DNA of 64,000 bases from Tubiluchus corallicola (Eukaryota; Animalia; Priapulida). How positions within the stretch are numbered: the stretch's first letter is position 1; the number at the start of each line of letters is the position of its first letter. Location: contig JAQGDQ010000171.1 in assembly GCA_030141605.1 (NCBI GenBank), forward strand, positions 62,001 through 126,000, given 5' to 3'. The translations under genes were made by a program, and so were the position numbers. Of the stretch, positions 12,101-48,217 are shown in pieces. Below the pieces are notes generated by a model. It saw only the letters and a list, made by a program, of their open reading frames with translations, ran no database searches and had not been told where the DNA came from.

Positions 12101-14938
12101 AAAAAAACGAAAAGCAATTTTAAAATTTGGGCTGTGGCTTATTGGTAGTCGTTAACTGGCTTGCCGTCCAAATAATTATCTCTTTTAAATACCCCAAATT
12201 ATGTATCTACTGTTTTATCATTGTTTTGGCAGTTTTTTGTGACATTAGCCCGGTTGGTTTATTCACCAAAGCCACTGGATGCGGGAGCAATAAGTCATGC
12301 GTGAAACGTATAAAGTCTTTAGATTATAGTTGATGAGATTTCAAAAAATGGGTGGCAAACTGTCTCAAAACTTTGGACTGCAGTTTGTGTGTTTACTCAC
12401 ACCTTCATTGCACTTATATGCTTAATAATAATAATTGCTTGCATAATAATGGCAATCATAAAGCTTAATCTTAGCAACACTATACAACATCGGGCAAATA
12501 CTTATTTACACTTATTCATTATTTTCAGACGTTAGTATAAGTGATTGGCTTGATACATGGGCTACAATTATGAAAGGATGCGCCGCCATCAGAGATTTCC
12601 CATATTGGGTCCAAGTTCACGTCAAACTCTACTTCCAGATAATGGATAAAGACAGTAAGGCCTTATATATTATCTGCTACAACTGTTATGATGACAAAAA
12701 TTCAAACATTATAAGCAAGCAGTTCTGACTTAGACTGTCTTTAATATACTGCTGTTTTACAGTGCAGCATTGATATTTTATTTTCAGGAGATGGACAGTT
12801 AACAAAGAGTGAATTGCGCGATTATTATACCGGGTTTGTCGGAATGGACGAAGAGGTTGCCGATGAACAAGTCAGAAAAGGTTACAAAGCTATGACAGCT
12901 GTAAGTAGAAACGTCTCAGTTTCCTAATGCTTATTTCTGGAAATTTATATGTATATTCATATACGTATATACACATAAATATACGTATATATATATTATA
13001 TGTATATTATATATATATAATGTATAATATGTAATAATATACAATAAAATCACAATCCTCAGTGTTAAAAATATTTTCAATACTAAAACACTGTTAAAGA
13101 CAAATTCATCTTGTACAAAACTATAAACTATTAGTGCATAAAAATTAAAACTAAACGCAATTACATGCATAAATTACAGTAGGTTCACGACACAATACAT
13201 AGGTGCCATGCGATTAGCAAAGTACCTTACAATATGCACATAATAAATAATACGTACACAATACACAAGTACAATATATTAAGTAAAATACATGGTAAAT
13301 GTAAGATAAAATTTTCATCAACTATCACAATATACACAATACATTCGTATATAATACTTAACAAAAATTACTTGTACAGATTGCCGTTTTAATTTTCGAA
13401 TTATGAGTTGTGAATATAAGAATATTAAAGTGCGATAGTCTTCCTGAGATTCTAATATGGGAATTTTCGTTTCTGGAATCATTTTATGATGACGAACTTT
13501 CATTGGATTGTTATGAGCTTATATAAAACTGATCATGCAGACGTAGTAATTTCTTTAAATTAATTTTAATGATTTCGTCATATGTAGTGGTAACAAACTC
13601 GTGATAATGTTCCTGGTGTAGCGAGTGCTGCCATCTGCTGGTTGCCAAATGAATCATCTATGAAATTAAAATTTGGCCAATTTCTTGCAGGATGGTGATC
13701 ATCCATTGAACATGGAGAATTTTTTGATGAACTTTGCTAACTTTATTATTGGGAAAAATATATATGGGCCTGGAGAATACGTATTTGGAACTTTTGATAT
13801 TGATCGTGCTCCAGGTATTTACACTTTATTTAATTTTATTACTAATTTTCTGGTTTCGAGTTTTCTTAGTGGGAGACCAGTTTTTTTCTTTTTAACAAAA
13901 GCCTGTCTGTCGGCTTACCTACCAGTTGACGTGCATTTCTTCTTACTTACTTACCTAATTTAGTTACTCACCTAGTCAACGATTATATACAAGAAACCTT
14001 CCTATCCATGCCTAGTTATATATCTACCTTCTACGTACCTGTACATTACCTGCTTATATGCATTATGTTAAAAGAAAACCGGACGATTGTGTAGACATTA
14101 GTTCAAAATAAAGTATGCTCTGATATATTGAAAACTACAACAGCTTTTAAATCAAAGCTAGGCTAAGTAATAATTACCTCGGATAGTTAAGTTTTGTTAA
14201 ACTTTCAAACCTACACGCGGCTAAGTGAATCCACTGATAATGGCAATGGCGTCTTTTTGTCACATTCGCGTGACTGATAAATAGGTCCGGTACCGTAATA
14301 ACCATATCAGGAACTGCAGTGTTCGTCTGTGACGTCATTGTGAGCTCATTTTCGTCAACGTGTTATAGCAATCCTCGCTTACTTACGCAAACGTGTTTGA
14401 CGCACACGTTTGCATAAGTCACGTTATATCCGCCATTGCACAAACAGTGGTTAGTTTGATCATAAACGATAGCTGTGTTCGGTTGCCGTTAATTAACTTT
14501 CGAAGGTAATTATTCAAATATAAGAAGCAACTGCTAACTTTTGTAGGCAAGAAAATGTATATTTTGGACAGTAAATTAAAATGAGATTGCGTTTAATCAA
14601 TCGTCCGGTTTTCCTTTAAACTGGGTTTTGAAAATTGTCACCATTTGCATAAAAGTTTGATTTTTTTGCCTTAAATCAAACTTCTTTTTAAAATTTCTCC
14701 AGAACCATTCAAGATCTGGTATCCCGTTGAAGCACTGGACTTCAGTGACGAAGAAACGGTTACGGCAATGGGTCGGAAAAAGAGCCGATTTACGCTAAAA
14801 GCAACAGCCAATGCTGTGATCATGGTAGAAAGAATGACCAGTGGTCGATACCAAGCTAGCTTAAATGTTGAGCACAAACCCTCCACCACTCAGATTCCCC
14901 AAGTGCCTAGAAGAAAAAAACTTGTTTTGCGAAACTGA
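9112..14938 (+). CDS. Sarcoplasmic calcium-binding protein (SCP)/calexcitin-like EF-hand protein, 7 coding exons, 312 aa
   Basis: Exons 9112-9289, 9940-9992, 11770-11878, 12529-12654, 12788-12900, 13691-13814, 14703-14938. All introns are GT..AG, phases join, and the total is 939 nt ending in TGA. Motifs: [15 protein letters not shown] loops [12 protein letters not shown] and [18 protein letters not shown], and the SCP-type C-terminal core [39 protein letters not shown]. The ATG lies 1 nt after an acceptor (tttattgcag, ending 9110), implying an upstream non-coding exon. Confidence 0.88.
9325..9530 (+). mobile_element. Family B left-end fragment in SCP intron 1
   Basis: AGGAAAACAGGATGATT... 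matches 38446-38640 and the reverse complement of 40500-40662. Confidence 0.7.
10097..10453 (-). mobile_element. MITE family A, inverted copy in SCP intron 2
   Basis: Reverse-complement similarity to 5998-6366 (TAGGTAAGGTTCTA, CTTAACCTTTGACC). Confidence 0.7.
10565..10742. repeat. (GGAT)n/(AGAT)n microsatellite
   Basis: Directly visible. Confidence 0.95.
11230..11450 (+). mobile_element. Highly degraded LINE RT core fragment in SCP intron 2
   Basis: Frameshifted VP(Q)[13 protein letters not shown] and SVDDTN, corresponding to the GVPQGS.LGP.LF.IY and FADDT motifs. Confidence 0.55.
13627..13641 (-). promoter_or_regulatory. CTCF-like motif
   Basis: The reverse complement CCAGCAGATGGCAGC fits the CCASYAGRKGGCRS consensus (read by eye). 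Confidence 0.35.
14072..14615. mobile_element. Intact MITE with TTAA target duplication (Kolobok/T2-like) in the last SCP intron
   Basis: TTAA (14068-14071) AAGAAAACCGGACGATTG ... CAATCGTCCGGTTTTCCT TTAA (14616-14619): an 18-bp TIR with 1 mismatch. Confidence 0.85.
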
Positions 14939-16862
14939 ACTAAAACCATTAATGACTTTAACTCAGTATTTTTATTACCCTATAGTATCAATCAGAAACG
15001 AGTAGGCCCGTGTTACGCAGAGCAAGCCATAATCTATAATCCGTAAGTCATAAGGCGTCCTCCATCTTCCGTAAGGTTCATGTCGTAATCCACGGTATGC
15101 TCCATGCTCTGTGTAACTGGCAAGGCATTTTGCCATGATCCGTTTTTTGTCTAAGCAGTTAAAATATTAAAATAATTGTTAAAATATTACGTTTTTTATC
15201 TAAGCAGATATATTATGCTTCTAAATACTACTATACTTAATTTGCTCTCAAAGTGCTTTTTTGGTTTTTGTATATTAATACCAGATCAAAATGATTTGGT
15301 AGTTATTAATAGCAGGCTAATGCTTATGAACTTTTCATCTCATTCTTTGCGCTTAACTTAGTTACTTGCCTATAATAGAACACATAAGCTTTTACACCAA
15401 AAAAGGAATGTAATGTAAATTACGCAGATGAATACGTGATTTCTAACTTGAACCCAAAATTTTGTATATAATCTGTACTTCAACTATGTAACCTGTAATA
15501 GTCAAATCAAAACATTTGCGTTTATATTAGTAAAAGTCTATAAAATTCAATCCGTTATGTTGCATCTACATTGCTGGGGTCGGGAAAAATGTTTTCATGG
15601 AGTTTAATGCGGAAAATGTACAATTTCAAATTACACTGTATCTATTTGTTAATTTACATTATAAAATACTTGTTTGTAAAATGATTGTTAAATTTGTCGT
15701 TGTCTTCTAGTATTTGTTAATTCCGTGCGTCTAGATTTCTAATTCTGTTTTTATATTAGATGTTTATTCCATTTTGAAAATGATTTTACATAAAAGATTT
15801 ACTAGTGTATACTTGTATATATATTCTGTTTTTTTTCTGTCGAACCGCTCAACATTTCTATCATTAATTTTGTCATCGTTGTCTAAATTGAAACGTTTTA
15901 TTTTTATTAAGGCGTGTAGTTTGAAAACTTGTTATAATACAAACTTGTTAGAAATAAAAATGGGAAAAATGTAGCTTTTGCTTTACTTTTGGTATAGAAA
16001 GGGATAATAGATTAGTGCAGAAATAATCAAAACTGGCAGATCATATACAAGTCGAACATTTTATTTCGTCAGTTTTAAGTACGTTTTTTAGTTGGCTCTA
16101 TCTATCGTTCATTAGCAAAAATAATTTGCCTGTCGTAAAACGTTTACCTCTGGCATAGATTACGTTTAATATCTAGCAGTCTTTCCTCTGTAAATCGTAA
16201 AGCAGTTACCGATTGATCTGAAATGGTAAAGCAACTAATTAAGAAAACCATCAGGTTGATCTACACATTTAAATTACCTTAACAATTTAAAAATTTATTT
16301 GCACTTTTATTTAAAAGTGTGGTAGGCAGTGGAAAAGCAGGAGAACAGATCCACACACATCTGTTGATTTAAATTACGCACCACCATCTCTACTGGTTTT
16401 CGTTGGTCAGTAGTTGATGAACAAACCAAACGAATTTATACTGGCACTCCAGCTTTTTTGTGAAAAAGACAACTTTATAAAAACATTAAACGATAAAAAG
16501 ATTAAAAGCAGACAGTCGTCTTCAGTGTGAAATTTACAATCAGCAATTAACCAGTTTTTCTTAACTCATTTTGCAAAGTCAAGTTTTGCTTGATGTATCT
16601 ATTACACGTAAACCCCTGTAGTTCGGCAGTTTATTTTTTATATATTTAGAATTACAGGTAAGTGCATCAATGACTATTGAACTTACATTTACAGTTATGC
16701 ATTCTGAAGAAACTAACTTGTACGGTAACACTCGTCGTGGAAAAACGAATAAAGGAAAAAAACTGTTAATGAAAACTAAAATTGTACGACATGAAATACG
16801 AGAGACGAGATAGCTCTCCTGAGACTTGTCATCATTAACAGAGAAAAACATAATGCCCTTTG

Positions 16863-17832
16863 TAGTCCCAAAGATTATAATATTTATTCAGTAGTTTTCA
16901 CCCTAGCGGGCCTCATAAGTTGAATAGAACGTGCTGGTAACTTCATAGTCTCAAAGATTATATTTTTTCAGTAGTTTCCACCCTAGCGGGCCTCATTAGC
17001 TGAAAAGAAAGTACTGGTAACTTCAGAGTCTTCATAGTCTCAAAGATTATAATATTTTTTCAGTAGTTTTCACCCTAGCGGGCCTCATAAGTTGAATAGA
17101 ACGTGCTGGTAACTTCAGAGTCTTCATAGTCTCAAAGATTATAATATTTTTTCAGTAGTTTTCACCCTAGCGGGCCTCATAAGTTGAATAGAAAGTGCTG
17201 GTAACTTCATAGTCTTCATAGTCTCAAAGATTATAATATTTTTTCAGTAGTTTTCACCCTAGCGGGCCTCATTAGCTGAAAAGAAAGTACTGGTAACTTC
17301 AAGGTCTTCATAGCCTCAAAGATTATAATATTTATTGAGTAGTTTTCACCCTAGCGGGCATCATCAGCTGAATAGAAAGTACTGGTAACTTCAGGGTCTT
17401 CATAGTCTCAAAGATTATAATATTTTTTCAGTAGTTTTCACCCTAGCGGGCCTCATCAGCTGAATAGAAAGTACTGGTAACTTCAGGGTCTTCATAGCCT
17501 CAAAGATTATAATATTTATTCAGTAGTTTTCACCCTAGCGGGCCTCATAAGTTGAATAGAACGTGCTGGTAACTTCACAGTCTTCATAGTCTCAAAGATT
17601 ATAATATTTTTCAGTAGTTTTCACCCTAGCGGGCCTCATAAGTTGAATAGAACGTGCTGGTAACTTCACAGTCTTCATAGTCTCAAAGATTATAATATTT
17701 TTTCAGTAGTTTTCACCCTAGCGGGCCTCATAAGTTGAATAGAACGTGCTGGTAACTTCAGGGTCTTCATAGTCTCAAAGATTATAATATTTTTTCCAGT
17801 AGTTTTCGCCCTAGCGGGCCTCATCAGCTGAA
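16863..17832 (-). repeat. Tandem array of 11 units (92-bp period), each with a minimal hammerhead-ribozyme-like motif on the - strand
   Basis: CCCTAGCGGG recurs at 16901, 16981, 17073, 17165, 17257, 17349, 17441, 17533, 17624, 17716 and 17809. The reverse complement of the best unit reads TTCAG CTGATGA G GCCC GCTA GGGC GAAA AC TA CTGGA. Confidence 0.9.
17795..17832 (-). ncRNA. Type I minimal hammerhead ribozyme motif (best-preserved array unit)
   Basis: Core CUGAUGA plus one extra nt, stem II GCCC/GGGC with a GCUA loop, GAAA, a 1-bp helix III (A-AC-U), cleavage at UA, and stem I UUCAG/CUGGA. Confidence 0.65.
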
Positions 17833-19508
17833 AATAATTTAAAAGGCATTACGTTTTTTCCCTACCGTTAATAAATAAAGTATGTCTTAGCAACTCGGGT
17901 TGGAATTGAAACACGTACCTACAAAGCTTTAGCATTCCGATAATCTTGGAAAATTATGTACCACATCATATAATAAAAATTAAATTTAATTAAATTTTAT
18001 ACCTTTGTCTCTATGCATATATGACTATTGTTGTAAACTTCGGGGTGCCAGATTTCTGAATAGATTCCCAGCACCATTGAAATCCAGGCTGAATGACCCA
18101 GACAATTTACTCGAGGCCAAATGGTGTGGTCTAGAGAACTTTGTAAAGAGAAAACTTGTCAAACAGGATTTGCGGCCGGTCGTGAATTTTAAGTATTAGC
18201 TAATTGTATAATGAAAGCAATAAAGCCGGTTCCTGGACTGAACAAAATTTCGTCTAAAATTTTAATACTATTTTGATGTTTGATGCACTAAAAGTCCAGT
18301 TAATTTTATGGAGCTAACAAAATTAGGTTTCGTAACATAATATCAAAAATTATAGACGGATATCTTTATGTAAAAAAATCTTAAAATATGACACATCTTT
18401 ACTACTATTATTATTATTTCTATTATTATTATCAGCATCATCATTATCATCATCGTCACGTATCAATTAACCAATTAACATAAGCTAAAAAGTGAAAAGT
18501 TTGGAGCACAAGTGAAAAGAATCGGCTGTAATGCTTCATGATTAGAAAGACTTTTCTCAAAATTTTATTTCATTAGCATAAAAATGGCAGTGTTAAACGT
18601 CTGCCATCTTCGATAGGGTGCAGAAATGAGGTGAGAAACTTTTATAGTTATCATAAATGATGAACAGTTAGGTTTTGCGATATAATATTAACAATAGGTA
18701 CGTTTTCACAGTAAAACAGTATGAAAGCGAACTGTCGTGAGTTTCTGTATCTGGTAGATCGAACGACTCTAGAACGATAATGGTAGCTTAGTTAAGGTCA
18801 GGGTCGTTTCCACTTTTAATCAGTTTGGATAACCTCAAGACATAATAAAATGAAAACCAAGTTTAACTGTCGTAACGTCTTATACACACTAAATAAAGAT
18901 AATCGTCCTTTGTCGATTATTTAACATAAGACATGAAACCGTCCTTTGTCGAATGTTTAACAACCTTGTTAGGTAGGAGACTCTACGACTATTAAATTTG
19001 TGAAACTGTGGGAGATTTAAACAGAATGCTTAAGATTTTAGAAAAAATGCTTTTACAGAATCATTTTGATCGTAAATTATCTTTCCCGTTAAGTGAAAAA
19101 TTGCCCACTACCATTAACATAACCTACTACTATTGTAATGATAGATGTATGCAAATTCTGCATACGTTTCTTAATCCCTTTGAAAGCTCTTGAAATAATT
19201 TGATATGTTAGAATTAACTAATCGTTTATAATGTCACAGGCCATTTTTTAGGCGTGAATGAACATTTAATCAGATATTACAAATGTAACGTGGGAAGAAG
19301 GTGGTTTAGCACCTAGTGATACAGCTCCAAGGAATAATACGTCACCTCTCAAGCGTAAAACGCTTCTCCTAACGCCTAGTATGAATGTGAGCTAGGGTGT
19401 TGGCCTGCCTGCCTGAGAACATTACTCACTTGCGCTGCTTGCATCTCTGAGATACAGACGCTGTTCTTCATTCTCTGATTGTCCGACAAAACAAATTTAA
19501 AATTGAAA

Positions 19509-35344: not shown

Positions 35345-36420
35345 GAATCTTTATTTGCCATAAAAATCGATATTCATAACTATAAAAGCATAAAAGAACA
35401 TCGCAGCATGAGAATAAAATTCACACAACTGTTAAAGGCAAATGCGACCAGTACAAACTAAAAACTACTGTGCCAAAAATTTTAAAAAAATATACATTAT
35501 AATGTTACATGCAAATTATAATAGCCTATATACAATATATACATACAATTTAAAATGGACGTGGGTAAATAAAATTTGCGGATAAATATATATTATCGTT
35601 TACGTATGTAGGGTTTTCAAAATGATTTAATGTATGTATTTTTAATTTTGATTTGAATTGTTTTGTTTTAAATTTGATGGCAGGGTATTCCAAAGTTGAA
35701 CTCCTTGTTTAATGATAGAATTGTTGCCGTATTTGTTATTAGTGCATATTTGTTTAATATTGTGTGATCTTGGATTTAATGTTGGCTCCAAGCGGAGTGG
35801 AAGCTTGTTTTTGATGAATGGCGTGTTAATGTTGTTGATGTATTTAAATAAGAATAGGATTGTGTAGAAGTCTTTATGTGCTTGTAAAATTGGGATTTTA
35901 AACATTGTTCTTAATTCTATTGCAGAGGTTTGATTTGTGGTGAGAGACGTTTTATTTGAATAGCCAGTGACTAATCTTAATGCATTATTTTGAAGACTAT
36001 TTAGTTTTTTATAGCTGTCTCTTGAAACTTCATGAAAAAGTGTGCATCCGTATAAAAAGTGCGGTAGAATGAGAGTTTTAAAAATTAATAACTTTGTCTG
36101 TTTAGTTAGTTGACCTTTCACCTGTCGTAAGTAGGATGGTCCGCATGCCATTTTATCGTAAATTTTATTAAAATGGTTATCCCAAGAAAGTTTGTTATCT
36201 ACACAGATTCCAATAAAACTTACATTGTTTTTCTGTTTTGTTATGCTATTTTCAACTTTTATTGAAGTATTAGTTATATTGTCATTTGAGAAGGGGGAAA
36301 GGACCATGAAATCTGTCTTGGTGCTATTTCATTTAAGTTTTAAATGGGTAAATGCTATCTTAATGTTTGCGATGTCCTGTTCTAAAAGTCGTTGAGCTGT
36401 TGCTAGATTTTCGTGGCCTA
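35345..36420 (-). mobile_element. 5'-truncated non-LTR retrotransposon (CR1/L2-group) RT C-terminal fragment
   Basis: ORF 35642-36307 contains SFIGICVDNKLSWDNH, KLLIFKTLILPHFLYGCTLF, KKLNSLQNNALRLVTG and GVQLWNTLPS; AATAAA lies near 35350 on the - strand. Confidence 0.85.

Positions 36421-41024: not shown

Positions 41025-48217
<7,193 letters not shown>

Follow-up and report, generated by a model that had tools for sequence, protein, structure and literature searches.

We consider it probable that the hammerhead array described here lies inside a truncated, two-armed copy of what is likely the pLTR of a Penelope-like element (PLE), and that a 92-bp segment of this copy was multiplied in place, at the DNA level and after its ribozyme had been damaged. 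The array would then probably be ordinary transposon debris and no working source of tiny RNA circles. Short tandem hammerhead units of pLTR origin are already known; new is the decayed member found in the window, i.e. in the whole stretch of 64,000 nucleotides that was analysed. Its assignment to the PLEs is based on nucleotide anatomy. Directly observed are the repeat family with its two classes of ends, the inverted arm, the palindrome of the family, the damage within the array and the mosaic of shared mutations.

The hammerhead array and the insertion around it

Eleven hammerhead motifs were located on the minus strand between 16858 and 17837, with spacings of 93, 92, 91, six times 92, and 80 bp, and TRF reports a 92 bp period with 9.7 copies and 94% matches for this region. 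The array of 11 minus-strand units with a 92-bp period, which had been proposed in the initial annotation, is thereby confirmed. The larger element enclosing it was absent from that annotation. The features of the insertion are listed below, with the units numbered 1 to 11 along the minus strand.

16786..17872, minus strand: whole insertion, consisting of tail, 3' segment, array and short inverted arm; left edge accurate to about 5 bases in either direction
16786..16833, minus strand: optional tail of about 40 bp, with loose ends of family contigs; the second end class lies at 16834-16838
16834..16862, minus strand: 3' segment of the family end, lying outside the unit that is repeated; counterpart of the inverted arm
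16858..17837, minus strand: array of 11 motifs; a unit comprises roughly 37 nt ahead of stem II, then the hammerhead and roughly 34 nt beyond the cut
17793..17837, minus strand: hammerhead of unit 1; intact core, 7 helix I pairs, AACU
17427..17464, minus strand: hammerhead of unit 5; core intact, helix I of 5 pairs, AACU, predicted cut after 17432
17333..17374, minus strand: hammerhead of unit 6; core intact, one C-C mismatch within helix I, AACU
17840..17872, plus strand: tailless copy of the family end, inverted and truncated, delimited by the arm alignment

Read along the minus strand, each motif starts with one helix I arm and the core; an additional base, a helix II of 4 pairs, GAAA, AC, UA and the second helix I arm follow. 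The core CTGATGA is intact in units 1, 5 and 6 (17821-17827, 17453-17459 and 17361-17367) and otherwise reads CTTATGA (six units) or CTAATGA (two units), as initially described, and G5 is changed in eight of the 11. All six CTTATGA units have also lost the first helix I pair, unit 6 carries the helix I mismatch listed above, and unit 10 shows an A13G change. Units 5 and 6 are the only adjacent pair in which both cores are intact. The minimal hammerhead descriptor is passed by units 1 and 5, and a complete type I hammerhead core (CUGANGA, GAAA, UH and three helices) is likewise found in 2/11 units; no two consecutive units among the 11 both pass the full descriptor. The helix III region reads AACU, which is non-palindromic, throughout the array. 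Both the occurrence of AATAAA in some units (three in our count) and the cleavage site at 17800/17799, i.e. a predicted cut after 17800 in the hammerhead of unit 1, had been placed correctly.

The descriptor was matched by four of 100,000 shuffled circular 92-mers and nowhere in the remaining 62,970 bases of the window. An Rfam search of the window returned nothing at the gathering score; over unit 1 there was one weak match to Hammerhead_HH9 (17 bits, E 1.2), and matches to CRISPR-DR48, snoRNA and miRNA models, all far under the gathering score, were discarded. From the low chance rate of the descriptor and the family evidence given below we conclude that the 11 motifs are real hammerhead motifs of the minimal type I that is known from Penelope pLTRs, in agreement with the initial annotation.

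The inverted repeats at 16834-16862 and 17840-17872 are imperfect and about 30 bp long, with a core that is complementary at 16 of 18 positions. Of 2863 random inverted pairs, 16 attained their alignment score, as did two of 3000 shuffles. Sequencing depth falls to that of the flanks on the left side of about 16789 and on the right side of about 17866. The tail holds a 7-bp duplication (16798-16811) that is peculiar to the window copy, and at its boundary the sequence ATG ATG (16835-16830) may represent the start of the parent ORF, in line with the ATG that is described as starting an ORF at this boundary in a PLE (PMC3846280). Around the insertion, no target-site duplication was found, and the 64-kb window yielded no further family copy. 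The flanks of the insertion are AT-rich. Both neighbouring genes lie on the plus strand. Their initial identification as an SCP and an intermediate-filament gene holds for the right neighbour (Pfam Filament, E 1.5e-12), while the left one is weakly SCP/calexcitin-like (EF-hand, E 0.012; PDB 2sas, E 0.11).

The parent repeat family

Contigs from assemblies of public runs were aligned to each end of the element at 80% likeness; assemblies X1 and X2 derive from one sample, possibly that from which the window itself comes, X3 and X5 from other samples. A further run, X6, presumed to be RNA, gave 0 contigs, which carries no information on expression. At the left end, 287 (X1), 317 (X2), 75 (X3) and 56 (X5) family contigs were recovered, and the summed depth of the family reached up to about 490 times that of the flank in X1, a value that does not represent a copy number. 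The array thus sits in a high-copy repeat family.

The sequence of this family extends beyond the left inverted repeat. Loose contig ends accumulate at 16805/16807 (at least 35 contigs in X1 and at least 33 in X2) and at 16805 (at least 12 in X5), and the letters past these ends continue the family for about 7-12 further bases, which places the true family end at about 16790 once the local 7-bp duplication is taken into account. A second end class at 16834-16838, which is thinly sampled, comprises four contigs among the loose ends listed and four of the 32 pieces listed, and coincides with the stop of the inverted arm in the window. Measured from the ribozyme cut, the two end classes lie about 58 and about 95 nt beyond it, with about 40 bp between them. 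In addition, eight joints between opposite strands were found in family contigs, at varied positions.

This anatomy suggests that the family is likely the hammerhead-bearing pLTR end of a Penelope-like retrotransposon. An inverted, 5'-truncated copy and a tail of 30-40 bp on one end only are part of the PLE layout as described in bioRxiv 10.1101/2021.04.23.441226 and PMC3846280. In an anole element, the tail corresponds to the stretch between two start sites of the reverse transcriptase (RT), one of which lies 85-92 nt past the cut (PMC11167929), compared with about 95 nt for the far end of the present family. Like the truncated EN+ PLE insertions reported in PMC4209133, PMC3846280, PMC11167929 and bioRxiv 10.1101/2021.04.23.441226, the family has a type I hammerhead in which an extra base follows A9 and helix III is small and palindromic; further common traits are two classes of ends separated by about 40 bp, a one-sided tail, an inverted arm and AT-rich flanks. 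It differs from these insertions in a helix II of 4 bp, where those described have 6-8, in the tenfold repetition of an internal 92-bp pLTR segment, and in that a target duplication was not found. Moreover, no RT/GIY-YIG ORF of a parent copy was seen.

The helix III loop had initially been noted to be one change away from AGCT, and indeed the family reads the palindrome AGCU. It was found in 66 (X1), 60 (X2), 25 (X3) and 9 (X5) contigs, which corresponds to 90% (2212/2457), 83% (34340/41248), 42% and 51% of the depth, respectively; the low share in X3 is due to one deep contig class with an unreadable letter and rises to 84% without it. PLE hammerheads act as dimers, and a palindromic helix III is described as one of their features (PMC4209133, PMC6765202). 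The base at the cleavage site varies mainly among A, C and U, with U or C in 24 contigs versus G in seven (X1) and 35 versus seven (X2), compared with about 85% transitions among the listed variants elsewhere in the family. The p-values of a Fisher test on this base are overstated, since related contigs were counted as independent and the listed variants alone were used. The family tables contain single-site counts, from which paired changes are not readable. Taken at the level of sequence, the family hammerhead looks selected and functional, whereas the hammerheads of the window array look as if they were not under selection.

Relatives of the family were sought more widely. Neither the specific nor the relaxed pattern matched any metagenome contig (0 matches each). 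None of the five matches from a scan of viral contigs had a stem II of 4 pairs or resembled the element, and we took them as chance. Literature searches, which were not organism-specific, returned no title on this repeat family.

Growth of the array and alternative readings

The junction between units lies at 17765/17764, some 34 nt beyond the cut site and not at it, and family contigs diverge from the array sequence at 17765. The tail and the 3' segment lie outside the monomer, so that neither family end would be present in a 92-nt circle. For a comparison of the repeats, we used the nine full junction-to-junction repeats and excluded the partial units 1 and 11. Their mean distance is 5.9%, their minor alleles comprise ten shared ones and five singletons, and 12 of the 21 site pairs were incompatible in a four-gamete test; the inactivating core changes belong to the shared alleles. 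This pattern of shared mutations and incompatible site pairs is better matched by stepwise duplication of DNA with exchange between units than by a single read around a circle.

A second junction in the same register, with other letters and a 91-bp period, is present in X1 (depth 12.4) and X2 (depth 227) and absent from the window. X3 contains the array-type junction and, in addition, a tandem-type piece that has diverged at 14 of 85 bases. The other-letter junction and the divergent piece indicate that a doublet may predate the insertion and may have moved. One X3 contig (record 19) joins the right flank to unit 1 and departs from the array sequence at 17764, which hints at an allele with one hammerhead. 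Unit 1 differs from units 2-11 in its upstream sequence and in a stem II letter; AACU is common to all units, and because of these differences a simple duplication fails to explain its presence in unit 1. The upstream sequence of unit 1 corresponds to a second family variant, which is intron-acceptor-like, and that of units 2-11 to the first. In Drosophila virilis, a pLTR intron ends at helix I (PMC2377424; PMC4209133), and by analogy the two upstream variants may be unspliced and spliced forms of the pLTR.

According to the reading that we favour, a Penelope RT would have started on a linear RNA, within its tail, and come to a halt shortly past the hammerhead, and a second, short inverted copy would have closed the other side of the insertion. 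A jump or slippage could then have linked the point 34 nt past the cut to upstream pLTR sequence, resulting in a first doublet, which is possibly older than the insertion. Finally, unequal crossover or slippage together with exchange between units would have led to the 11 units, with catalysis being unselected.

The initial annotation had regarded the array as a candidate cassette that produces and spreads 92-nt circles, which is not supported, given the lack of the palindrome in all 11 units, the loss of G5 in eight of them, the multiplication of damaged variants and the position of the family ends outside the unit. That the array is active now, with a minus-strand transcript being cut into 92-nt monomers or circles, we accordingly regard as improbable, even though three cores are intact, two of them in adjacent units. 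We predict that the array cleaves poorly or not at all. The AACU duplex has a computed energy of +7.6 kcal/mol compared with -2.5 kcal/mol for AGCU, i.e. it is about 10 kcal/mol less stable, and this value, together with PMC4209133 and PMC6765202, is the basis for the assumed effect of the loop; changes at G5 are reported to reduce hammerhead activity more than 100-fold (PMC4075628, PMC4027429). In all ten neighbour pairs, the double-hammerhead fold lay 21-32 kcal/mol above the best fold, as computed without a known active dimer as a control. Further points against present activity are the helix I mismatch in unit 6, a monomer fold that is not better than that of shuffled sequences (z 0.5), the plus-strand orientation of both adjacent genes, and the failure of eight out of nine predicted Xenopus dimers to cleave in the experiments reported in bioRxiv 10.64898/2026.07.22.740005. 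On the other hand, one PLE hammerhead required its protein for cleavage in vitro (PMC11167929), so that a poor naked fold need not be a bar to activity. It is rather unlikely that a single event produced the array, with a Penelope RT starting on a tail-bearing RNA and then going repeatedly round a 92-nt circle cut from a master with a doubled hammerhead, and that decay followed. The same-register junction with other letters and the divergent tandem-type piece in X3 are consistent with this route, as is the predicted circular fold of the monomer 17432-17523, in which helix I has 7 pairs and the core is intact. However, identical units with later singletons would be expected instead of ten shared alleles versus five, a pattern that later exchange could mimic; the palindrome is missing from every unit, and a template jump would be needed, the family ends being outside the monomer.

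The inverted repeats flanking the array, each of which touches TTAA, would also suit a MITE with terminal inverted repeats of about 30 bp and TTAA target sites that carries the array. In most of the contigs listed, however, the family runs about 45 bases past the left TTAA and inverted repeat, which contradicts a MITE; the inversion joints occur at many places rather than at fixed ends, and the arm beside the hammerhead has about 5-6 times flank depth compared with more than 100 times for the family, so that most copies are without an adjacent arm. We therefore consider a MITE very improbable. To an ordinary minisatellite with a hammerhead-like motif by chance we give practically no credence: the Rfam gathering score was not reached, and covariation within the array was not above that of shuffles (a single pair changes on both sides, a score reached by 146 of 500 shuffles), but the rarity of the descriptor in shuffled sequence, the family palindrome and the pattern at the cleavage base speak against chance. 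We see a small but real possibility that the locus captures a retrozyme at birth, in which a Penelope end doubled its hammerhead at a distance of 91-92 nt, the doublet moved at least once, and the locus segregates one-hammerhead and 11-unit alleles. In this case, intact sister loci would release circles of 91-92 nt, which is roughly half the length of the smallest animal retrozyme RNA that has been validated, and the two variants of the upstream sequence would represent a single pLTR with and without splicing.

Relation to retrozymes and hammerhead satellites

Under the favoured reading of in-place, DNA-level amplification, the locus may serve as an example of how a Penelope end could seed a minisatellite that looks like a retrozyme without ribozyme activity, and it is a warning that tandem hammerhead motifs alone are no proof of a circular-RNA element. 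The route from a pLTR to a tandem array has been proposed in bioRxiv 10.64898/2026.07.22.740005; in the window locus one can read where the units join, where the family ends and in which order damage and amplification occurred. If the one-unit allele or 92-nt circles were confirmed, the step from a transposon end to a retrozyme would become directly testable.

The array resembles a decayed non-LTR retrozyme of pLTR origin and lacks complete hammerheads in consecutive units. With animal non-LTR retrozymes it shares head-to-tail units, a type I hammerhead in each of them, low GC content, an intergenic position and derivation from a pLTR. The initial remark that such monomers are usually larger holds for the validated circles, which are described as 170-400 nt long, highly self-paired and expressed (PMC7229834), but not for retrozymes in general: for these, consensus lengths of 51-972 bp, pLTR origin and local tandem amplification are reported in bioRxiv 10.64898/2026.07.22.740005, so that a unit of 92 bp has precedent, and units 5 and 6 provide two consecutive intact cores. 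In contrast to the retrozymes described there, the array has eight broken cores out of 11 and a monomer without unusual structure; the family ends fall outside this monomer, and upstream of the hammerhead most of the family copies seen have non-array sequence. The hammerheads of satellite 2 of newt and axolotl (PMC7229834) are similar in having a one-pair helix III that needs a dimer. Their units are 330-350 bp long, with a palindromic tetraloop and demonstrated cleavage and circles, whereas the loop of the window array has 2 nt and is non-palindromic.

Upstream variants and tandem junctions of the hammerhead family

The high-copy repeat family carrying the hammerhead end comprises two upstream variants, which share TTCAG immediately before the core as their terminus (window 17833-17837 and loose ends of contigs), and one of which has an intron-acceptor-like appearance. 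The two variants possibly correspond to the unspliced and the spliced form of the pLTR. In addition, family contigs contain a joint from 16940 to 16858, a tandem junction with a 91-bp period, which is in the same register as the array of the window. This junction is not present in the window's own array and may derive from a second locus or else from a divergent allele.

A very deep contig class in run X3

In run X3, which stems from a different sample than runs X1 and X2, one very deep class of family contigs was located on window 17787-17832, with a depth of about 770 compared to 6-12 at single loci. The class spans the hammerhead only and has a U as cleavage base; it may represent a distinct hammerhead repeat that is strongly amplified in the X3 sample.

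Genes, open frames and other repeats in the window

Two plus-strand features lie to the left of the element, a likely Penelope-type pLTR remnant (16786-17872, minus strand):

12530-14940, plus strand, exons of an EF-hand gene (gene model by eye only)
16650-16663, plus strand, site resembling the splice-donor consensus, not attributed to any exon, some 130 bases to the left of the element

The EF-hand gene shows a weak likeness to sarcoplasmic calcium-binding protein or calexcitin. Open frames were found elsewhere in the window:

35642-36328, minus strand, open frame of 228 aa
40986-41666, plus strand, acidic open frame of 226 aa, made of 18-bp repeats
46510-47364, plus strand, collagen-like open frame (Gly-X-Y) of 284 aa

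The 228-aa frame appears similar to the C-terminal portion of a LINE-type reverse transcriptase; a Pfam search at E 0.1 returned no match for it. Other tandem repeats are the following:

206-443 and 1111-1177, close to the window start, tandem repeats with a unit of 25-26 bp, together with a short, degenerate run of telomere-like hexamers
44394-44835, tandem array of a 29-bp unit, about 15 copies, with higher-order periods
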